Origin: Verrucomicrobiota bacterium
GTDB lineage: Bacteria > Verrucomicrobiota > Verrucomicrobiia > Limisphaerales > Palsa-1400
Length of the DNA: 64,000 nt
Assembly: GCA_049510745.1 (NCBI GenBank)
Contig: JBEKYR010000005.1
Location: 96,001-160,000 of the forward strand
Direction of reading: 5' to 3'
Position numbers and translations under genes: made by a program. A model generated the notes under the pieces. The model was not told where the DNA came from, made no database searches, and saw nothing but the letters and a program-made list of their open reading frames with translations. Shown one piece after another: positions 13,013 to 24,981 of this stretch. The stretch's first letter is position 1. Each line of letters begins with the position of its first letter.

Positions 13013-13240
13013 TCAAGACTTGCGGCAGCGCGAGGCCAACGCCTTCACGACAGGAACAAGTCGGCAGTCTTCCAACGGGCGGTAATGCAGTGGCCTGCGG
13101 CGGGCGCGTTTGAGCCAAGCCACATCCTCGGCGTCCTCCACGCGCTCCAAGAGTTCTTCATAATTCTTGATGGGGATGATGACCGAGACGGGTTTGCCGT
13201 TGCGCGTCACGATTTCAGGTTCTGGCATTGTCGCCTTCAT
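13013..13240 (-). CDS. Phd/YefM-like antitoxin (orphan, possibly with run-on C-terminus)
   Basis: EIVTRNGKPVSVIIPIKNYEELLERVEDAED is a typical Phd-like signature. Confidence 0.75.
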   Translation of the reverse strand: MKATMPEPEIVTRNGKPVSVIIPIKNYEELLERVEDAEDVAWLKRARRRPLHYRPLEDCRLVPVVKALASRCRKS

Positions 13241-13264
13241 AGTCGTGGATTACCGTCTCCACGT

Positions 13265-13453
13265 TCAGGCACGCGGAGTGTTCTCCTCCTCATCCAGCGC
13301 GCGGAAAGATGCCGCCGCCAGAGCCGCGAAATCGTCATCCGTCAAATCATCAGACATGGGAGCACGTTCGACGATGGCGCGTCGAAGCTGTTGACGCTCC
13401 TTTTCCGAAAGCTGCTCGAACTCGCCAAGAATTTGAGTGACTGCTTGTGTCAT
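13265..13453 (-). CDS. Small acidic hypothetical protein, antitoxin-like (62 aa)
   Basis: MTQAVTQILGEFEQLSEKERQQL...LTDDDFAALAAASFRALDEEE; size, acidity and position next to a Phd gene. Confidence 0.55.
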   Translation of the reverse strand: MTQAVTQILGEFEQLSEKERQQLRRAIVERAPMSDDLTDDDFAALAAASFRALDEEENTPRA

Positions 13454-13542
13454 GTCCTGAACATACGCCGACGGAAAGGACTGAGCAAGCGCCGGGTATT
13501 AAGCGATTGACAAGCAGTACGATTCGTGATAAAGGAGCGATC

Positions 13543-14172
13543 ATGACTAAGGAAGGGATTATCATTGCCGCTTTCACGACAATGGCCATGTTCTCTTTAC
13601 AACGGTTGGAAGCTCAGGGGACATTAACGATGGCGACTGATCCGACATTCGGGCCAAACTCACTAATTGTTGACACGGCAACAGGTCTGAACTGGCTAAA
13701 CCTAAAATACACAGATGGCTTGAGTTATGACCAGGTCATTGGGGAGATGGCGCCGGGAGAGCTCTTCGCGGGATTTACGTATGCTAGCTCTGCCCAGGTG
13801 ACTACACTTTTTGCGGATGGTACGCCAGGGAACGCAAATTATTCGCCCACGAGTCCTGCAATTGCGACATTCATTGATTTGGTTGGAAGCACCGGAGAGC
13901 AGAACGGATACCCTTACTCCATGGGTGAAGTGCTAAACGGACCACCTGGTATTATTGGTGGCGAGCTTATCATACCGACGTGGGGCCTTTTTGTTGCAGG
14001 TTACAACGGCGTCTTTTCTTATGGTGTGCAGGGGTCCAGGCAAGGAGAGTGGTACGGGGGCGGTTTCGGAAGCTGGCTTGTGGAAGCTGTACCGGAGCCC
14101 AAGACATGGTGCTTGTGTTTGCTTGCCGCACCATTTGTAATCAGCGCGGTTCGGAAAAGAAGCAGAATATGA
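13543..14172 (+). CDS. PEP-CTERM sorting-domain secreted protein
   Basis: Signal peptide; C-terminal VPEP + hydrophobic stretch + RKRSR; lower GC than host genes. Confidence 0.85.
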   Translation: MTKEGIIIAAFTTMAMFSLQRLEAQGTLTMATDPTFGPNSLIVDTATGLNWLNLKYTDGLSYDQVIGEMAPGELFAGFTYASSAQVTTLFADGTPGNANYSPTSPAIATFIDLVGSTGEQNGYPYSMGEVLNGPPGIIGGELIIPTWGLFVAGYNGVFSYGVQGSRQGEWYGGGFGSWLVEAVPEPKTWCLCLLAAPFVISAVRKRSRI

Positions 14173-14385
14173 TACTGTTTGGGATTTTTTAGCGGATTTC
14201 TGAGGATTCGTGAGGAGCGCGCGATTTCGGAAGCGCCCTAACGATAACGCCTTGCAACGTGTGAGGATTGGTGAGTAAATAGTATTGTCACTTTCGAGTC
14301 AGTCAGCCTTATGCCAGTTGCGCTGATATGATACATGAATATAACTAATGCGTTAATTTTTCGCTTGCTTTGTTCGCTCTGTTCG

Positions 14386-14424
14386 TAATGCGGGGAATGG
14401 CGGGAGTGGCGGGGCTCGAACCCG
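14386..14424. repeat. att direct repeat (duplicated 3' end of tRNA-Asp), 39 bp
   Basis: TAATGCGGGGAATGGCGGGAGTGGCGGGGCTCGAACCCG is identical to 19307-19345. Confidence 0.97.
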
Positions 14425-14607
14425 CTACGAATCATTGCAAATCAAGGACTTAGGTGGGCTGCCATCACAAGGAGCCTCACAAATCTCTGGCGTGTTGGGG
14501 CAGGACCTGTCACGCGTAGTCACTGCATGGGCTGATCTTCCTCCGCCTCTCAAGGCTGCAATCCTCGCCATTATCGAGGCCGCCGGGAAATAGGAAAGCG
14601 GCTACCT

Positions 14608-15546
14608 GTGGACACGCAAGCCAGTGGGGGCACGGAAGGGCCGGGGGCGGAGCGGCGCGAAGCGCCGCCCGCACCCGGCCTTCCTTGTCTAAATAGTAAC
14701 AATTCAGACAACGCGGAAGCGAGTCCGTGGAATCTCCTGACGGGTTCGCATCGCAAGGTGGCCTTCTGTCTGCAAGGAGAAATTCTCGCTTTGGTTGAGG
14801 ACTTCGGTATTGAGCATCTTGGATTTTTAACCCTCACTTTTGCTGATCATGTCGTTGACATCAGGGAAGCGTCTCGGCGGTTTAACAATCTCAACCGGCG
14901 CGTATTGAAGGCCCGTTACAAGCGCCTGGTGGCGGTGCCAGAGCGGACGAAGATTCAGAGGCTGCATTTCCACTGCCTGTGCGTGTTAGACGTTGATATC
15001 CGCACTGGCTGCGATTTTGAGGCTTTCAAGAAAGGGGATTACCGGTCGGCATCGGCGGTTCTTAAGTCCGAGTGGAAGTTTTGGCGCGAGACTGCGCCCA
15101 AGTATGGCTTCGGTCGGACTGAGTTGCTGCCGGTTAAGTCAACCGCCGAGGGCATCTCGAAATACGTTGGGAAATACATCGCCAAGCACATCGACTGCCG
15201 GGTCGAAAAGGACAAAGGCGCGAGGTTGGTTCGCTACATCGGTTATCGCCCTGGGGAGCGGTCGTTCCACCCACACATGATGTTCAATTCGGAGCATGCC
15301 TGGCTGTGGCGGCAGAAGGTAGAAAAGTTCACCCGCCAAAATCGCATTTTTGACATGGAGCATTTCACGAAGATTTGCGGGCCTCGTTGGTGCTACTTTT
15401 TTCAAGACGCGATTCTTCACACGGATTTGCCTCCTGGCACGGTGTTTCCGTCGTTGGCTCTGGGGTTGGACGAGTCGGAGCGCAAGAGCGCCAGGGAGTG
15501 TTTGCTTTTGAAAGTTCGTCTTTGCAAAGACATCGACAAGCTGTGA
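14608..15546 (+). CDS. HUH-family rolling-circle replication initiator
   Basis: Motif I FLTLTF, motif II LHFHCL, motif III KYVGKYIAK in the canonical order; start codon (GTG) uncertain. Confidence 0.85.
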   Translation: MDTQASGGTEGPGAERREAPPAPGLPCLNSNNSDNAEASPWNLLTGSHRKVAFCLQGEILALVEDFGIEHLGFLTLTFADHVVDIREASRRFNNLNRRVLKARYKRLVAVPERTKIQRLHFHCLCVLDVDIRTGCDFEAFKKGDYRSASAVLKSEWKFWRETAPKYGFGRTELLPVKSTAEGISKYVGKYIAKHIDCRVEKDKGARLVRYIGYRPGERSFHPHMMFNSEHAWLWRQKVEKFTRQNRIFDMEHFTKICGPRWCYFFQDAILHTDLPPGTVFPSLALGLDESERKSARECLLLKVRLCKDIDKL

Positions 15547-15748
15547 GTCCGCACTGTCAATTACACCGTGTAACCTCGGAACTGCGCGGAGCGTAACCAA
15601 CACAACCAAACAGGACCACCCTTGCCACCCTGGGCAATAGGGAGAACCTGGCATTGGAAAAAACCATCCTGGGCAAGGGGCATCTCAATGCGATTTGTCT
15701 TGCTAGGGCCATCAAAAAGCGCAATGGTGGCCGAAATTTAAAACACGC

Positions 15749-16594
15749 ATGACAATCGTTGTTGGACTAATAGGCAAGGAATCAATCGTTTTAGCGAGTG
15801 ACAGCCAGTCAACCTATGGAGTGGCAAAGTTACTGAACGCAAGAAAAATAGGCGTCGTCGCATTTGAAAATGGAACGGCACTTGTTGCACAAGCTGGCGC
15901 GGCGTATCCGGCGTCTCGCGCAGTGCAACTTTTTGAACGGAAGGCAAAAAGCCTTCGCGTTACTGATTCCGAATCGTTTATTAAGGCCGCTCGTGACTCT
16001 GTATTAGAAGTGAAACATTGCCTAATTGAAGGACAAGGGGGAGCAGCGTTTTCAGAAGATAGACGGGAGCAATTTTTTAGATGTGACTACTACTTTAAAT
16101 TGATGGTCGCTTACTATCTTAACGACCAGCCTTTCATTTTCACGATTGATAGTTATGACTGTCTGCCGGTCCATCTGAAATCGGATTATGTGGCAATGGG
16201 ATGCGGTGACACTTTAGCGTATTACCTTTTAAGCGAGATTGTGGAACTAGGGATGCCATTTACGAACTGCATGGCGCGTGCAATCTACGTTGTGGAAAAG
16301 GTCAAACAAAACGTTGAGGGATGCGGGGGATCGACATGCGTTGGAGTTGTTCATAACGTCCCTGATTCGGATGATGATTATACCGCGAAAGTCCGCCGTT
16401 CAAAAGGATTGACATTACCGTATAGCAGTGCTCGTGTTCTTGATCAAAATAGAATCAGCGATATTGCAAGGAGACTTACAGACGTTGATTTTAAATGCAG
16501 GAAAGATAGAAACAAGCAAATTATAGCGATGATTCAAGGTGTGGAGGCTGATTATCAGAACGAATGGGACGAATCGCCGGAGGAAGTACAATGA
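15749..16594 (+). CDS. Proteasome-beta/Ntn-hydrolase-like protein without propeptide
   Basis: M-T1IVVGL..IVLASD17SQST..RK32I..AQAG..YVAMGCG..GCGG follows the Thr1/Asp17/Lys33/Gly47/GSG/SGG pattern; strongly AT-rich. Confidence 0.75.
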   Translation: MTIVVGLIGKESIVLASDSQSTYGVAKLLNARKIGVVAFENGTALVAQAGAAYPASRAVQLFERKAKSLRVTDSESFIKAARDSVLEVKHCLIEGQGGAAFSEDRREQFFRCDYYFKLMVAYYLNDQPFIFTIDSYDCLPVHLKSDYVAMGCGDTLAYYLLSEIVELGMPFTNCMARAIYVVEKVKQNVEGCGGSTCVGVVHNVPDSDDDYTAKVRRSKGLTLPYSSARVLDQNRISDIARRLTDVDFKCRKDRNKQIIAMIQGVEADYQNEWDESPEEVQ

Positions 16595-16713
16595 GTAAGC
16601 CAGGTATCCAAGTCGGTTTTTACTGGCGATAACCAGGATTTGTTTCTTGAAGACACTGTTCCTGTTTTGAGGACTGCGTGCGGCTTAGTGCAGTATCACA
16701 TGTGGCAGCAAAT

Positions 16714-17154
16714 TTACTTGAGGTTTTGCCACCGGACCAATATTCCATCGCTGAAATAGAGGAAAATGTCCGGTTCGGCAGTTTCGAGAGTGACAGGGTC
16801 GGGATCTAAATATGACCATAAATCAAATGAACCGCCAATTCCTTGACTTGTTTCAATATGCCACGGGCGGCCCATGACCACGCGGACTTGCTCTTCGTCC
16901 ATACCGATTGAAATCCGTCCGTTCTTGAAGTTGTCCAGCAATCTGGGGTCGGCATTTGGATGTGCTTCCATGTATGCTCGCGCTCTCTCGGAAATTGCAG
17001 ACGGGAGACGTTGGTCGAGTTCGTCGAGCGTAAATTGCGCTGCGGATTTATAGTGCTCTGTGGCCGTGTCGGCAGGGGGTTGTCCATATTGAGGGGGGAT
17101 GGGAGACCCACATCCCGCGATTGCGACAAGAATGACTGACAGAACGATTCTCAT
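16714..17154 (-). CDS. Predicted lipoprotein with SmpA/BamE-like small domain
   Basis: Lipobox IAGC; IGMDEEQVRVVMGRP...WSY...LYFSDGILVRWQ. Confidence 0.65.
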   Translation of the reverse strand: MRIVLSVILVAIAGCGSPIPPQYGQPPADTATEHYKSAAQFTLDELDQRLPSAISERARAYMEAHPNADPRLLDNFKNGRISIGMDEEQVRVVMGRPWHIETSQGIGGSFDLWSYLDPDPVTLETAEPDIFLYFSDGILVRWQNLK

Positions 17155-17478
17155 TGTTTGGATAGTATCACGCCCGATAGCTGTCCGTCAATAATGTGAG
17201 AATGCGCCTGGTGGTGACGGCATTGGCCGCAGTGTTGCGGTGGCAGAAAGGGCGCAATCCTGGGGACAAGGACGACACGACCAGGCACTTGTCGGGGCGG
17301 AGCGTTCGCGTGTTGGCATTTGGCTTGGCCTTTGTGTTCGCAGCAAGCCGGATGCCAACACGGGAACGCGCAGCGGGGAAATGCTCATGGTTTCTAATGT
17401 GATAATGATTGCAATTAGAATTACTAAAAACGTTTTTATTTGATTGCTATGTTCGTTTTGTTCGTTTAGTTTGATGCC

Positions 17479-17877
17479 ATGAAAAGAAAACGAACAGGCG
17501 CGAAAGTGATAGCCGGGAAGGCAACGCAAAAGGCCCCCGTGCGAGCGGAACAAAAATCAGAGAACCAATGGCCGCCCGGGCATCTCACAGAATCCTCGGA
17601 TGGGGTGCTGAGAATCCGTCCGTTTCCAGAGAGCCTTCTGCACGAAGCCGAACGAGAGCCTGATCATGTGGACTTGGCGGAATACTGGCGGGTGATTTTT
17701 AAGCTGCGCGAAAAGGGCTTCACGTTTCGTGATATTGCACTGTGGCTTTCGGAGCGCAACGTTGAGGCGGACCACAACGCCGTTTATCGGGTGTACTCCA
17801 ATCATATGACCGCCGAGCAGACTGCAATAGAATCGGACCTGGAAGAACGGGAAAAGCAAATGATCGAGGAGTTGTGA
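17479..17877 (+). CDS. Hypothetical protein with probable HTH
   Basis: LREKGFTFRDIALWLSERNVEADHNAVYR resembles an HTH; first gene of the run leading to int. Confidence 0.6.
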   Translation: MKRKRTGAKVIAGKATQKAPVRAEQKSENQWPPGHLTESSDGVLRIRPFPESLLHEAEREPDHVDLAEYWRVIFKLREKGFTFRDIALWLSERNVEADHNAVYRVYSNHMTAEQTAIESDLEEREKQMIEEL

Positions 17878-17878
17878 T

Positions 17879-18100
17879 ATGTCTGACGTTGTCGAAAGGG
17901 CGAGCGAGGGCAATGCGGAATCGAAACTGGTGCGGCTGAAAGGGGCGGCGGCTCGGCTTGGTGTCAGTGTGCGGACATTGTACCGCATCATTGCGGAAGG
18001 GGGCTTGCCCTTGGTGCATATTCGAGGGTGTTCGTGTTTGAAAGAAGGCGACTTGAGCGCTTACGTGGAAAAAAGCAAACGAAGGAAAATTTATGATTAA
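17879..18100 (+). CDS. Excisionase/AlpA-like HTH protein
   Basis: LVRLKGAAARLGVSVRTLYRII.EG.LP.V.IRG; 73 aa, overlaps the integrase start. Confidence 0.88.
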   Translation: MSDVVERASEGNAESKLVRLKGAAARLGVSVRTLYRIIAEGGLPLVHIRGCSCLKEGDLSAYVEKSKRRKIYD

Positions 18101-19376
18101 CAGCATTTACAAACCCAAGGGGTCGCGGATATGGCGCTGGAGATTCCGGCAGGTCCCTGCCGATGGCAAAATTGAAGATGTATCGCTTGGGACATCTGAG
18201 AAACAGGTGGCGGAAAAACGGCAGGGTGAGCGGCGGCGAGAAAAGGAGCTTGAAAGAGGGGGGTTCATTCCTCCAAAGGCTATACGTGATGCGTCACACC
18301 GCAAGCTGTCGGACCATTTGCAAGACTTCCTGGGCGATATGCGCCGGCGGGGGAAGTCGGAAAAGTATCTGGCAAACCTTGAATTCCGTGTTGGCAGACT
18401 GATTTCGGATTGCGCTTGGAACACAGCAAGCGACGTTTCGGCTGATTCATTCCAAGCCTGGTTGCGTAGGCGACAGGAATTGAAGGACAAGACGGCGAAT
18501 GATTATTTAGAAGCTGCGCGGTGTTTTTTTAACTGGCTGGTGAAACTCGGTCGGGCGGGGTCTAATCCTCTGCTGTCGGTGGAAAAGGCAAAAACGAAAG
18601 GCGGCAAAGCACAGGGGCGCCGGGCGTTTAGTGATGACGAAATGGTGCGTTTGCTGGCTGTTGCTGGCGAGCGCAAGGCGGTTTACCTGATGGCGGTCCA
18701 TACGGGCTTGCGGAGAGGGGAATTGGCGGCGCTCAAGTGGGGAGACTTGCATCTGGATGCGGTGACACCGTTTGTCAACGTCCGGGCATCGACAACTAAG
18801 AACGGCAAGGCTGCGGATATGCGATTGCTTCCTGAATTGGTGGCAGCACTGGCTGAACTTAAAACCAACGGGACAAATGGCGATGACCTTGTTTTCAAGC
18901 GGATTCCCCGGATTGAGAGGTTTTACAGGGACTTGAAAAAAGCCGGGATTGCGCTCAAGGACGCATTTGGACGCAAGGCCGTCTTTCATTCCCTGCGGCA
19001 TACATTCGGGACTAATCTGGCGCGGGGTGGAGTGGCAAGCCGGGTTGCAATGGCTCTGATGCGGCACAGTGACCGAAGATTGACGGATCAGATTTACACT
19101 GATGAAAACCTGCTCGGCACCTGGGCGGCGTTCGACAGTCTGCCCAATTATGGGGAGCGAGCCTCACAAATAGCCTCACAGATTTTAGTCGCAACGGGTC
19201 AAAACGTGTCATTGCCTGTCACAACGAGTGCCGGGCCGGAAGTGGCAAAAACCCTTGTAAACATTGGCGATTGTCACGTTTTGGCACTGCCTGGCACAAC
19301 GGGTCATAATGCGGGGAATGGCGGGAGTGGCGGGGCTCGAACCCGTAACCTCTGCCGTGACAGGGCAGCGCTCTAA
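18093..19376 (+). CDS. Tyrosine recombinase/integrase
   Basis: TGLRRGEL (R), TKNGK (K), FHSLRH (HxxR), MRHSD (H), QIYTD (Y); the ORF reads through att into the tRNA antisense. Confidence 0.96.
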   Translation: MINSIYKPKGSRIWRWRFRQVPADGKIEDVSLGTSEKQVAEKRQGERRREKELERGGFIPPKAIRDASHRKLSDHLQDFLGDMRRRGKSEKYLANLEFRVGRLISDCAWNTASDVSADSFQAWLRRRQELKDKTANDYLEAARCFFNWLVKLGRAGSNPLLSVEKAKTKGGKAQGRRAFSDDEMVRLLAVAGERKAVYLMAVHTGLRRGELAALKWGDLHLDAVTPFVNVRASTTKNGKAADMRLLPELVAALAELKTNGTNGDDLVFKRIPRIERFYRDLKKAGIALKDAFGRKAVFHSLRHTFGTNLARGGVASRVAMALMRHSDRRLTDQIYTDENLLGTWAAFDSLPNYGERASQIASQILVATGQNVSLPVTTSAGPEVAKTLVNIGDCHVLALPGTTGHNAGNGGSGGARTRNLCRDRAAL

Positions 19377-19395
19377 CCAATTGAGCTACACCCCC
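19319..19395 (-). tRNA. tRNA-Asp (GTC)
   Basis: GGGGGTGTAGCTCAATTGGTTAGAGCGCTGCCCTGTCACGGCAGAGGTTACGGGTTCGAGCCCCGCCACTCCCGCCA folds as a 77-nt cloverleaf with anticodon GTC and encoded CCA. Confidence 0.97.
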
Positions 19396-20954: not shown

Positions 20955-21423
20955 GGCGTCAAGAAGTCTGGCGCCCTTGCCGCGCTTCGCGCCCCTCCCC
21001 CCACTCGGAAGTTACGCAAAGGTTCGATGGGCGGCAAGGGCGCCGCAATGTCTCCAACATGTTCTGAGTTCATGTCTCGCCTGCCTGTCACGCCGCGCTC
21101 CTGGCGTCGGTGGGTTAAAATCCAGATTCCCGCTGCCGATCCGAAAGCATTCCCACCCGAGCGTGACAACAATTCATCGGCAGGTTCCGGCATTTTGTTA
21201 AATTTCGGGTCAGGGAACAACTGAGGCAGCGCCTTAAAAAGAGCGGCAAAAATTGCCCACTGCATGGACAGGAAGAGATTTCGATTTGAAATCAACTTGA
21301 TGAATTTGTCGAGCGTTGTAAACTTGCTTCGTGCGCAAAACAAAAGAAACCGCGTATCAACTCACCCGCCATCATTTAGTCCACATTCTTCGCGAGGAAG
21401 CGCAGTCGAACAGCGTCCACTCG

Positions 21424-22302
21424 ATGACGATTGGCGATTACACCGATGCGATCATTTGCGGCGATGCAGAGTCCACGGTGCGCGCCCTGCCATCCGAATC
21501 CGTCAACGCGATTATCACGAGTCCGCCTTATTACCAACAGCGGGATTACGGCGCGGGGTTGCAAATTGGAAACGAATCTTCGCCGGAAGCTTACGCGCAA
21601 AAGTTGGCGGGCGTTTTCCGCGAATGTTTCCGAGTGCTGGCGAAGGATGGCACGTTGTGGTTGAACCTCGGAGACAAATACAAGGAGGGGCGGTTGTTGG
21701 GAATGCCGTGGCGCGTCGTGTTCGCCTTGGAAAGCCTCGGCTGGATTCTCAGGTCTGACATCATTTGGCATAAAACCAACGCCATGCCCGCTTCGGTGAA
21801 GAACCGCCCGACGACGGATCACGAATACGTCTTTATGTTTTCCAGGTCGCCGGATTATTTCTACAACGCCGACGCCATTCGTGAACCGCACGTCACGTTC
21901 ACGGAAAAAAGCAGGATGAGGGGCGGGCGCGGGCATTTCGGAAAACGGGGAGGAACGCCGGAGCAAGGCAAGAACGGCGGAAATCCCAATCTCCACAATG
22001 GGCGCTGGGACCAGGCGTTTCATCCGTTGGGCAGAAACAAAAGAACCGTTTGGCAGATTCCTCTGTCAAAATTCCCGGAGGCTCACTTCGCGGTGTTCCC
22101 GGAAAAGTTGGTTGAAACCTGTGTTATGGCTGCGACGAAGCCAAACGGTTTGGTCCTCGACCCGTTCGCTGGCAGCGGCACTGTTGCAATTGTAGCCCAG
22201 CAGTTGGGGCGTCACTTCGTCGGGATTGATTGCAGCGAGAAATACTGCGCTCTGGCCAAAAAGCGTCTCGAAAAAAGCCAACTGGCATTTGGCCTGGCCT
22301 GA
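21424..22302 (+). CDS. Beta-class amino-DNA methyltransferase (probably N4-cytosine)
   Basis: TSPPY precedes VLDPFAGSGT; IIWHK.N.MP, HEYVFMF, HFAVFPEKL; alternative GTG start at 21331. Confidence 0.93.
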   Translation: MTIGDYTDAIICGDAESTVRALPSESVNAIITSPPYYQQRDYGAGLQIGNESSPEAYAQKLAGVFRECFRVLAKDGTLWLNLGDKYKEGRLLGMPWRVVFALESLGWILRSDIIWHKTNAMPASVKNRPTTDHEYVFMFSRSPDYFYNADAIREPHVTFTEKSRMRGGRGHFGKRGGTPEQGKNGGNPNLHNGRWDQAFHPLGRNKRTVWQIPLSKFPEAHFAVFPEKLVETCVMAATKPNGLVLDPFAGSGTVAIVAQQLGRHFVGIDCSEKYCALAKKRLEKSQLAFGLA

Positions 22303-22303
22303 A

Positions 22304-23182
22304 TCAGGCAAACCGCTTGAAAAATGGAATCAACTTTTCCACTTCATTTTCGAGCATCGGTCCGATGGCCTCGGTCTGGTTTGGATTGGCGCGAAGATAA
22401 ATCCAATGCTCGCACCGGAGGGATTTCAGATCTCCGCCCCAAGACTCCGCAATGATGACAGGCACGCATTCGTATCCGTTCTCATGCGCCACTGAAATTG
22501 CCTTGAAAATATCTCGTGTGAACAGATTGGCATGGCCGCCGCCCATCGTTTCGCGCGTTTTGACTGGCACAAGAATCGTTCGCTTCTTGCCGATGATCTG
22601 CACATCGAATGTTTCTTCTTTGATTCGCTTTTCGCCATCTCCGATTTCAAGCCGAACGGAGCGTCTCTCAAAAACTGTTCGGAAAGCCCCGCGAACAAGC
22701 TCCTCAAATCTCGTTCCTTTGAGCGCCCGGCGACTTCCCTCAAGCCTTGCCAGCATCACTTCGGACAACGCCGGCCACGACCAACTTTCGGCCTGCGGAA
22801 ACAATGGTCCGACGAATTTGCGCAACTGATTCAAGAGGTTTGCGCGCTTTTCATCCAGGGATTCGCCTTGCACTGAAGTCAGGAGCGGTCGCAGCCGTTG
22901 AGCAGGCGCGTCCCGTAGAATCCACGCGAGGAAATACCATTTTGCCGTCGCGTCTTTGTAAGGTCTGGCCAAACCATCAAGCAATTGAACACCGCTCCGC
23001 CTCGCCAAATAATTTCCAATGACCTTCGTCGCTTTCGCATCCGACGGCTCGTTTATGAAAACGTAAATGTTTTGATAGCCGTGCTGCTTTAAATACACGC
23101 AGAAGTCCTCATAGTATTTTTGATTCTGGCGGACGATGGCCACCAAATCTTGCAGCCGCAGATTCTCGATTATGAAGCCCAT
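22304..23182 (-). CDS. Probable type II restriction endonuclease
   Basis: Convergent with the MTase (1-bp gap), lower GC, G..FE...FDVQI...VPVKTRE PD-(D/E)xK-like core. Confidence 0.65.
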   Translation of the reverse strand: MGFIIENLRLQDLVAIVRQNQKYYEDFCVYLKQHGYQNIYVFINEPSDAKATKVIGNYLARRSGVQLLDGLARPYKDATAKWYFLAWILRDAPAQRLRPLLTSVQGESLDEKRANLLNQLRKFVGPLFPQAESWSWPALSEVMLARLEGSRRALKGTRFEELVRGAFRTVFERRSVRLEIGDGEKRIKEETFDVQIIGKKRTILVPVKTRETMGGGHANLFTRDIFKAISVAHENGYECVPVIIAESWGGDLKSLRCEHWIYLRANPNQTEAIGPMLENEVEKLIPFFKRFA

Positions 23183-23190
23183 GAAATGTT

Positions 23191-24981
23191 TCAATGATAT
23201 TCCTGCACCGTCTTGACGCCGTAGCCGCTTTTTTTGAGGGCGGCGATGCCCAGGGCGGCGGCGCGGGCGCCGCCGAGCGTGGTCATAATCGGCGTGCCCG
23301 TATAGACGGCGGTGGTGCGGATTTTCACTTCGTCGGCCCGCGGCGTCTGGCCGGCGGGGGTGTTGATGACCAGGTGAATTTCACGGTTCTTCAGCAGGTC
23401 CAGCGTGTTGGGGCGGCCTTCGGCCAGTTTGAAAACGCGCGAAACCTTCAGGCCGGCTTCCTCCAGGACTTTGGCCGTGCCCACCGTTGAAATCAGCTCG
23501 AAGCCCAGGTCGGCGAATTGCCGGGCAATGGCGGCGACTTGTTTCTTGTGCGCGTCGCTCACGCTGATGAAGACGCGCCCGCTCAAGGGCAGCGGCGCCC
23601 CGGCGGCCATCTGCGATTTGGCGTAGGCGATGCCCAAATCGGCGTCCAACCCCATCACCTCGCCCGTCGAACGCATTTCCGGCGAGAGCAAAATGTCCTG
23701 GCCCTGAAAGCGGTTGAAGGGAAAGACCGATTCCTTGACGGCCCAGTACCGGGTCCAAATCTCCCTGGTGAAACCCAGTTCGGCCAGTTTCTTTCCCGTC
23801 ATGACTTTGGCGGCCAGCTTGGCCAGGGGCACGCCGATCGCTTTGCTGACGAAGGGCACCGTGCGCGAGGCCCGCGGATTGACTTCCAACACATACACCG
23901 TTTCTCCCTTGACGGCGTATTGCACGTTCATCAAGCCGATGACGCGCAATTCCCGCGCCATGGCGTGCGTGTACTGGCGCATCGTTTCAATGACTTTGGC
24001 CGAAAGGGTGTGCGGCGGCAACACCATGGCCGCGTCGCCCGAATGCACCCCGGCAAACTCGATGTGCTCCATAAATCCCCCAATCACAATCGTGCCTTCC
24101 GCCGCGTCCGCGAAATGTCCCACGTCGGCAATGCAATCCACGTCCACCTCGGTGGCGTCTTCCAGGAATTTGTCCACCAGCACGGGCCGCTCGGGAGAAG
24201 CCTCCACCGCGACGCGCATGTAATGGTTCAACTCCGCGTCGGAATAGACGATCTGCATGGCCCGTCCGCCCAGCACAAAGGACGGACGCACCAAAACCGG
24301 GTAGCCCAGGCCGCGCGCCGCCTCCAGCGCCTCCGCTTCGTTGGTGGCCAGGCCGTTGGGCGGTTGCGGAATGGCCAGTTTATTGAGCATGGCGGCAAAG
24401 AGTTTGCGGTCTTCGGCGATCTCGATGCTTTGCGGAGAGGTGCCGATGATGTTGACGCCGTTCTTTTGCAGGCCCAGCGCCAGATTCAGCGGCGTCTGCC
24501 CGCCAAACTGCGCGATCGCCCCCCGGCATTTTTCCCGCTCGTAAATGTGCAGGACATCCTCCAGCGTCAGCGGCTCGAAAAAGAGCTTGTCGCTGGTGTC
24601 GTAATCGGTCGAAACGGTTTCGGGATTGGAATTGACCATCAACGTTTCAAAACCGTCCTCCTTCAGCGCAAAGGCGGCGTGGACACAGCAATAATCAAAT
24701 TCAATCCCCTGTCCGATGCGGTTGGGGCCGCCGCCCAGGATCATGATTTTCCGCTTGCCGCCCGGCCGGATTTCGTCGTCCCCGCAATCGTAGGTGGAAT
24801 AATAGTAGGGTGTGTAAGCCTCGAATTCCGCCGCGCAGGTATCGACCAGCCTGTAACTGGGGACCAGGCCCAGTTCCTTGCGCAAGGCGCGGACGTCCTC
24901 CTCGGATTTTCCGGTCAAACAGCCAATTTGACGATCGGAGAATCCGAGGGATTTCGCCTTGGCGAGCAATTCACGATTCAT
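23191..24981 (-). CDS. carB: Carbamoyl-phosphate synthase large subunit, C-terminal half only
   Basis: [34 protein letters not shown], second ATP-grasp, MGS domain; 596 aa. Confidence 0.92.

Follow-up and report, generated by a model that had tools for sequence, protein, structure and literature searches.

A 4.9-kb integrative rolling-circle replicon at a verrucomicrobial tRNA-Asp gene, with an integrase gene very probably divided by its attachment site

The stretch of DNA analysed here (the window, 64,000 nt, whose positions serve as coordinates throughout) belongs to a Verrucomicrobiota bacterium of the Limisphaerales lineage Palsa-1400 (GenBank assembly GCA_049510745.1, contig JBEKYR010000005.1, positions 96,001 to 160,000; C5:96001-160000 of the source genome G000, which is 94% complete), and it contains, beside an intact tRNA-Asp(GTC) gene, a small mobile element that is very probably an integrative rolling-circle replicon (Table 1). 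The element is enclosed by an exact 39-nt direct repeat (42 nt at 98%), whose right copy overlaps the 3' end of the tRNA gene, and the circle reconstructed from it measures 4,921 bp. It has a GC content of 52.3% against 60.3% for the genome, in which it is present as a single copy. A preliminary description made from the letters alone had placed six open reading frames (ORFs) between intact 39-bp repeats, and all six are indeed present and open and the repeat is exact; the labels given to Rep, the Ntn-hydrolase, Xis and Int were borne out by profile searches, while those of the lipoprotein and the helix-turn-helix (HTH) protein found only weak matches (to BamE and PF07508, respectively). A seventh frame at 14435-14593 has been added, which corresponds to a split-off end of int. 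As that description had also stated, no capsid, pI/Zot ATPase, relaxase or type IV secretion system gene is matched by the element's proteins in Pfam, PHROGs or NCBIfam, the sole PHROG match to a 'terminase small subunit' being weak (E 0.011) and falling on the HTH of Xis. The same scans gave no primase/helicase replication genes or capsid-hijack genes, the ORF map and a transmembrane scan revealed no operon of small membrane coat proteins and pIII after rep, and promoter and terminator scans stayed at chance level.

Table 1. Features of the element and its target, in window coordinates.
Feature	Position	Strand	Remarks
tRNA-distal att site: 27 nt of a displaced 3' fragment of tRNA-Asp and 12 nt of element type	14386..14424	.	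exact repeat
Split-off int 3' end, 55 codons (includes the 52-aa ORF 14435-14593)	14425..14593	+	in frame with int only in the circle
Putative arm-type integrase-binding repeats	14462..14483	+	from sequence; match 19162-19183
HUH rolling-circle initiator (Rep), phasyl-Arp type (PF23343)	14608..15546	+	start codon uncertain
Candidate double-strand origin: GC-rich hairpin 14634-14684, then DNA motif 14680-14690	14634..14702	+	inside rep 5' end
Cargo: proteasome-beta/HslV-like Ntn protease, Thr right after first Met	15749..16594	+	PF00227 E 1.4e-6
Cargo: predicted lipoprotein, weakly SmpA/BamE-like	16714..17154	-	lipobox seen; PF04355 E 0.0075, under cut-off
Double hairpin of 175 nt, non-coding; candidate for single-strand origin, packaging signal or both	17207..17381	+	
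Probable DNA-binding regulator, 132 aa, unnamed family	17479..17877	+	PF07508 E 0.089 (weak)
Excisionase/recombination directionality factor (Xis)	17879..18100	+	PF12728 (HTH_17) E 5e-6, TIGR01764 E 6e-8, phrog_66
Tyrosine integrase (Int), integrated form, 427 aa	18093..19376	+	PF00589 E 3.5e-20
Putative arm-type repeats, within the int frame	19162..19183	+	from sequence
tRNA-proximal att site	19307..19345	.	exact repeat
Intact host tRNA-Asp(GTC), integration target	19319..19395	-	

The integrase keeps a complete set of catalytic residues (R207, K236, H299, R302, H325 and Y335), and its frame reaches the att site without a stop, so that the att core lies inside int, downstream of the catalytic tyrosine, and the integrated form ends 9 residues into the antisense strand of the tRNA gene. 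When the circle is closed in silico, the frame continues into 14425-14593 and the protein grows to 473 aa. The end gained in this way consists of a linker, which runs over the arm-type repeats, followed by a two-helix hairpin domain, and internal repeats beside att are also found in relatives of the element. Taken together with the comparative evidence that follows, this layout makes it very probable that the seventh ORF, or tail, is the C-terminus of the integrase itself.

Reading through att was observed in 15 of the 17 related elements whose int points at it, the two exceptions being a proteobacterial element and a frameshifted one. In a stricter count of 22 elements, based on strict patterns for the catalytic end and for the tail, both patterns lay in the same frame across the junction in all 14 that could be scored, 113-124 aa apart, at targets that comprise Asp, Gly, Ser, Asn and one unassigned tRNA; by chance one in three would be expected in frame for each element, and although related elements are not independent, the att peptide differs by tRNA. 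Four further elements (Val, Gly, Pro, Val) missed one pattern and have a frame of at least 358 aa over the junction, and the remainder comprises one frameshifted int and three elements without an integrase end. Moreover, 39 distinct tails show a pN/pS ratio of 0.45 in the int frame versus 0.91 and 1.71 in the other two, with codon-position values of 0.73/0.83/0.54, the third positions being the most variable, and they have no start codon in common. Five natural fusions (P0193, P0213, P0222, P0224 and P0147), which may derive from circles or from tandem arrays, join an integrase or its linker to an att peptide and the tail, and the structural model of P0213 contains the catalytic core, a disordered linker of 70 aa and two confident helices at 399-431. 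A Foldseek search with the Int-tail model retrieved nothing but tyrosine recombinases and is uninformative for the tail, and a two-copy structure prediction of the tail (score 0.27 versus a mark of 0.42) speaks neither for nor against it. The tail profile matches 4,259 clusters at 50% identity, with short orphans making up almost all of the best 150, and the tail is present in 28 of 301 genomes of the phylum; a close-match scan of IMG/VR gave no relative of Int. In a separate case, the frame of a large serine recombinase (P0195) continues through an att site of tRNA origin into the same tail, either as an accident of a tandem array or because the tail is portable.

A precedent for this arrangement is found in the Myxococcus phage Mx8, whose attP lies within int and whose integration creates a new 3' end and changes the activity of the enzyme, according to the portions available of PMC6070905 and PMC4383910. 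From the same partial sources, the integrase of Mx8, and also those of Mx9 and SSV1, resembles the one described here in that integration alters the 3' end of int and leaves the catalytic domain in place. The likeness concerns the att-in-int layout. Mx8 is a 50-kb tailed phage whereas the window holds a small element, the part that is switched here, a conserved helical hairpin of small size, follows a long disordered linker whose DNA is also the att arm, and in this family the frame of the tail is preserved at five or more tRNA targets. Because of the Mx8 precedent, we infer by analogy that the circle form of Int may be more proficient in integration or more stable, with the chromosomal form damped.

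The initiator belongs to the phasyl-Arp type (E 9e-9 to PF23343), and the preliminary proposal of an HUH Rep with two tyrosines in motif III proved correct. Its motifs are FLTLTF (73-78), HFH (120-122) and YVGKY (186-190), that is, the HxH and YxxKY signatures, in which H120, H122, Y186 and Y190 are invariant across 16 diverse homologues, and its structural model shows an HUH fold (pLDDT 90.7). The nearest folds in the PDB are those of pMV158 RepB and CRESS Reps (best E 0.004, none at E<=0.001) and in BFVD those of microvirus initiators; no PDB entry was matched by sequence, and 50,697 phage records gave one weak microvirus match. In this line, 1,866 Rep homologues were found, and 26 plasmids of PLSDB match, the 25 that were listed all being of 0.7-2.3 kb; three of the matching plasmids are annotated as 'phasyl DNA replicon protein arp', with 42-47% identity. 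Over some 80% of its length, Rep shares 41-48% identity with the initiators of phasyl-type plasmids of 1.3-2.3 kb. The clade also occurs in true inoviruses, namely those of Neisseriaceae and the locus L077, and in circles that carry nothing but rep, which account for 21 of 80 metagenome loci. In trees with 105-106 rows, the window Rep falls into one group with those of two related elements (L001 and L002) and of a Rep-only circle, Reps from Neisseriaceae inoviruses make up a separate clade, and the Reps of integrated elements and free circles interleave; these trees were built by a quick method and by FastTree, with group labels assigned by the authors and ungrouped rows left out. Additional Rep-only circles, of 1.5-2.6 kb with terminal repeats, were seen in L004, L032, L035, L047, L050 and L075 besides the 21 metagenome loci, and several of them have been binned, probably wrongly, into metagenome-assembled genomes of unrelated phyla. 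A 4.5-kb viral contig with 61% GC (L094) encodes a Rep of the same type directly followed by a Zot-like ATPase, with no clear coat gene.

Within the 5' end of rep, a GC-rich hairpin is followed by a short DNA motif, and both are taken here for a candidate double-strand origin on the basis of their sequence. The motif is present in 135 of 173 non-redundant Rep loci and, among those, its wobble positions are 99-100% conserved, a figure that is partly circular since the rows were picked by their match; the preceding hairpin varies in sequence. Inoviruses share this origin-like motif, and so do phasyl-type plasmids, in which it likewise overlaps the beginning of the initiator gene. In the host flank, at 20970-21044, there is a GC-rich inverted repeat that resembles the origin hairpin at 14645-14668 (88% over 24 nt).

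Between the cargo and the regulator lies a non-coding double hairpin of 175 nt, which has no match in Rfam and is conserved at 71-93% identity in about 20 relatives, among them elements whose Reps are 30% identical. It folds into two long imperfect hairpins, in which 15 of 47 pairs show a change on both sides, and this covariation exceeds 500 of 500 shuffles and all slid controls, with the structure taken from the same alignment. All 21 non-redundant long matches linked to rep are co-oriented with it, so the hairpin is a strand-specific structure; it is likeliest a single-strand origin, and possibly a packaging signal. Another explanation, which we consider unlikely, is that it is a dispersed repeat of the host, similar to REP elements, or a structured RNA whose accumulation in this family is incidental. 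In this regard, full or partial copies occur in 24 of 31 genomes of the host family, other palindromic units adjoin the hairpin or insert into it, and its bin in peat sequencing runs reaches a summed contig depth 4-17 times that of the next bins, which weighs against a role confined to the element. However, the 21 full copies on the rep strand, usually one per element, occupy a fixed place before the regulator-xis-int block, and copies away from Rep reside mostly in elements or tRNA-linked relics: from a total of about 45, 20 further full copies were checked, of which 9 lie on the int strand adjoining an int of the same type (8 of these with the tail upstream), about 5 fall in tRNA- or tail-linked relics and the rest are near neither.

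The proposal to collect tRNA-linked neighbours has resulted in a family of 43 att-bounded elements, delimited by flanking repeats from fetched loci, with the window included and duplicates removed (L174, an identical copy, is not independent). They measure 3.2-10.4 kb (median 5.6 kb) and occupy 13 tRNA types and the tmRNA gene, and the models of Rep and of Int match 39 of them each. Matches to Rep occur in 17 of the 31 host-family genomes, which are 64-98% complete, with up to 9 per genome, and many family copies are decayed. None of the 43 elements matches the models for pI, pV-like, pVIII or pIII proteins; as a control, the pI model recovered 6 of 6 inovirus loci and the coat models, built on 4 sequences each and of low reach, 1 of 6 each. 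Pfam searches on 98 cargo proteins found no P-loop coupling protein, and Walker A-like strings appear in 3 of 43 elements. Modules are exchanged independently, as in L002, at tRNA-Gly (Rep 77%, Int 40%), and L016, at tRNA-Asp (Rep 50%, Int 85%). The element is intact, and a family of 43 that lacks structural genes, carries varied cargo and exchanges Rep and Int independently is not what a remnant would present. An integrative rolling-circle replicon without transfer genes, as first suggested, is thus what the HUH Rep, the intact tyrosine integrase and the like-sized relatives depict.

The cargo slot lies between rep and the 175-nt hairpin, and its content is exchangeable and often related to defence or toxin-antitoxin functions: HicAB, ParDE, MNT-HEPN, TIR, methylases, a TerY triad and Cas9 were found from element to element, in lists that are incomplete because the ORF caller missed some Int and Rep frames. 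The protease and lipoprotein of the window element occur in no other member of the family; the protease has two paralogues of 34-35% identity elsewhere in the genome and no PADLOC match. The regulator matches unnamed Verrucomicrobiota clusters (0.92-0.94), and unrelated small proteins fill its slot in relatives. Three members illustrate larger or unusual cargo. The 10.3-kb Rep and Int element of L036 (88-10444), at tRNA-Cys, encloses a Cas9 of 1,054 aa, Cas2, an array of 11 repeats and a TacA/GNAT pair, and a comparison of its 10 spacers with the fetched loci gave no match above the chance level. In L133 (9479-13380) the TerY-phosphatase-kinase triad is the cargo of a tRNA-Phe element, and in L017 (9650-14005) a tRNA-Asp element contains an integron-integrase-like gene and a run of small ORFs with signal peptides.

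The att sites also keep traces of the history of the locus. Related Asp elements have att cores of 27-29 nt, and here 27 of the 39 nt are tRNA sequence, so the extra 12 nt are probably the leftover of an earlier occupant of the same site. To the left of the element, the low-GC stretch 13013-14385 encodes a Phd antitoxin, a 62-aa ORF and a PEP-CTERM-like gene; similar genes lie beside tRNA-Asp in L131, L268 and L278, which, together with the 12 extra bases, suggests that this stretch is a relic of an earlier element at the same tRNA-Asp. No syntenic empty site was found in two genomes of the same genus.

Among the closest known systems is phasyl, an E. coli phage-plasmid hybrid with the arp gene, which is packaged by M13, f1 and fd. 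Phasyl-type plasmids share with the window element the Arp-type HUH Rep with two tyrosines in motif III and, overlapping the start of its gene, an origin-like motif; they are free replicons of 1-3 genes, without integrase, from Gammaproteobacteria, whereas the window element integrates (att, Int and Xis), bears cargo genes and differs in its candidate single-strand signal. The reading that we favour, with a probability of roughly 0.5, is that of an integrating rolling-circle replicon of the phasyl type whose passage between cells depends on a helper, most likely an inovirus, and packaging by an inovirus has about an even chance of being the main transfer route. Int and Xis would excise the 4,921-bp circle from tRNA-Asp, as the anatomy of the att sites implies, and excision would rejoin int, replacing its 9 tRNA-derived last residues by 55 that end in the two-helix domain. 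Rep may then nick at the hairpin and motif in its own 5' end and displace the plus strand, on which the 175-nt hairpin would prime synthesis of the second strand and might double as a packaging signal. Finally, and this is the weakest step, the single-stranded circle would be extruded in the coat of a helper inovirus, enter a new cell and integrate at a tRNA gene.

Potential helpers exist in the host family. A Zot match was obtained in 6 of the 31 genomes, where five correspond to inovirus-like loci (one partial) and the sixth to an unrelated protein, and all 5 inovirus-positive genomes are Rep-positive compared with 12 of the 26 others, in counts from related genomes to which no statistic was applied. 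The inovirus-like prophages L158-L163 (in G004, G010, G028, G030 and G022) encode coat-like, pIII-like (640-680 aa), pI/Zot and Xis-like proteins; no close relative was obtained in IMG/VR by a close-match scan with a verrucomicrobial pI. Furthermore, the capsid-less sister element L135 contains a gene 79% identical to the one preceding the coat gene of the inovirus L160. L128, L132 and L135 are capsid-less Int-Xis-Rep elements with a gene of 90-104 aa, called 'pV-like' by position only, and they are the best candidates for true inovirus satellites.

Several observations weigh against helper packaging of the window element. Its own genome has no pI/Zot gene, the element lacks the pV-like gene, and coupling-protein-like PF12696 genes occur in 18 of the 31 genomes, G000 included. 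Neither the Rep-only circles nor the inovirus loci of Verrucomicrobiota, several of which are cut by contig ends, yielded the 175-nt hairpin, and its core has 0 matches in IMG/VR, so that there is no sign here of a signal shared with a helper; moreover, 11 of the 20 checked hairpin loci have no integrase nearby and 8 partial copies lie elsewhere in G000. Among the 80 metagenome loci there was no circular contig with both Rep and Int, the 21 contigs with terminal repeats all being Rep-only and of 1.6-2.6 kb. Four peat runs, two of them perhaps the source, yielded contigs without attP or an empty-site joint and an element cover like that of the flanks, in assemblies where contigs drop rare forms, and the element therefore seems quiet in these runs. 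A tandem-array origin of the Int-tail fusions would also tell against the circle as their source.

The alternative that survives best, although we regard it as rather doubtful, is that no dedicated helper exists: an integrative cryptic plasmid would persist by integration and spread through rare generalised transduction, vesicles or DNA uptake, with the same integrase switch and the hairpin as a single-strand origin only. The lack of a signal in common with inoviruses, the host genome without pI, the many decayed copies and the interleaving of integrated elements with free Rep-only circles in the Rep tree would all fit. Nevertheless, the prevalence of Rep (17 of 31 genomes) and the frequent exchange of modules suggest an efficient route, the elements, at 3.2-10.4 kb, keep to the size range of single-stranded replicons, and sister elements share a gene with local inoviruses.

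In a second and less likely scenario, the element would be an integrative mobilizable element (IME), whose Rep doubles as a relaxase so that a co-resident conjugation system transfers the strand. Own integrase, excisionase and att sites are IME-like features, and streptococcal IMEs with relaxases resembling rolling-circle initiators (MobT, Rep_2, PHA00330 and Viral-Rep) have the same compact initiator-excisionase-tyrosine integrase plan and variable cargo, many of them lying at tRNA 3' ends. In the parts accessible of PMC5357655 and PMC5704250, 83 of 118 of those IMEs encode a TcpA coupling protein and 35 of 118 have none, which, with the PF12696 genes noted above, leaves some room for this scenario. 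However, the streptococcal cases are tied by the same partial sources to integrative and conjugative elements of the TcpA type, and no TcpA was seen here; VirB4 exceeded the cut-off in 0 of the 31 genomes (PF19044 and PF03135, models that divergent systems may escape), and the elements contain no canonical relaxase or coupling protein. The last possibility, a deleted remnant of an integrase-encoding inovirus prophage, is very improbable. The same Rep clade and origin motif do occur in true inoviruses of Neisseriaceae and L077, and next to pI several inovirus-like loci of Verrucomicrobiota encode an integrase or an Xis-like protein, but 0 of 43 elements keep structural genes, the genes and att sites of the window element are intact, its Rep stands apart from the Neisseriaceae inovirus clade and verrucomicrobial inoviruses have no close Rep. 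The outcome that the preliminary description had named against itself, that is, known structural genes or a deleted remnant, has accordingly not materialised, because 43 att-bounded and like-sized elements exist without such genes.

Returning to the inovirus-helped replicon, other satellites provide further points of reference. P4, PICI, cf-PICI and PLE satellites replicate with primases or helicases and encode capsid-hijack genes, and the window element differs from them in having none of those gene types. From an inovirus prophage it differs by the missing pI/Zot ATPase and coat/pIII operon. Closer are TLC-phi of Vibrio cholerae, an integrating HUH-driven satellite of filamentous phages (PMC9226527, available in part), and pDolos of Shewanella, a bare rolling-circle plasmid that can be packaged by an inovirus (preprint 10.1101/2023.11.28.569023, likewise partial), which share small size, rolling-circle replication by an HUH Rep and the absence of coat genes. 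As far as those sources extend, TLC-phi integrates by the host XerCD at dif and pDolos does not integrate, while the present family has its own integrase and uses tRNA targets. Literature searches on verrucomicrobial integrative rolling-circle elements, PF23343, inovirus satellites with Verrucomicrobia and phasyl retrieved nothing, in a corpus that covers subscription and older papers thinly, and no such family appears in the available portions of PMC13107129, PMC6813254, PMC12282955 and PMC13230959, although the supplement of PMC6813254 may list verrucomicrobial inoviruses. Each part has a precedent (the phasyl Rep, rep-xis-int islands and the Mx8 switch); what is new is their combination, together with the conserved domain that is switched. 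The att-split integrase, the two origin candidates (the rep motif and the 175-nt hairpin) and the link to phasyl go beyond the preliminary description.

Two neighbouring observations are recorded apart from the element. At 21331-23194 of the window there is a convergent ORF pair of lower GC, with a DNA-methyltransferase-like frame and a 296-aa partner, probably a restriction-modification system as labelled from motifs. Three small contigs of the same genome (C73, C74 and C75) contain dense tRNA arrays (11, 8 and 4 genes, respectively) of the kind found in tRNA islands or large phages.

A wider view, which is tentative, would be that of a phylum-wide class of filamentous-phage satellites: phasyl-type replicons with an excision-switched integrase tail that ferry defence cargo between tRNA sites, and whose int ends would explain an orphan small-ORF family of more than 4,000 clusters. 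In any case, the family defines small mobile elements, many with defence genes, for a dominant and genetically almost untouched phylum of soil and peat, and in the host family roughly one genome in two contains them. Next to att sites, thousands of 'hypothetical proteins' are re-annotated as integrase ends. The integrase switch, known from a few viruses, is represented here by numerous natural variants and by a small, well-delimited domain, which makes the way in which recombination rewires its own enzyme directly testable, and a 5-kb kit with a site-specific integrase and a rolling-circle origin is an obvious base for vectors in these bacteria.

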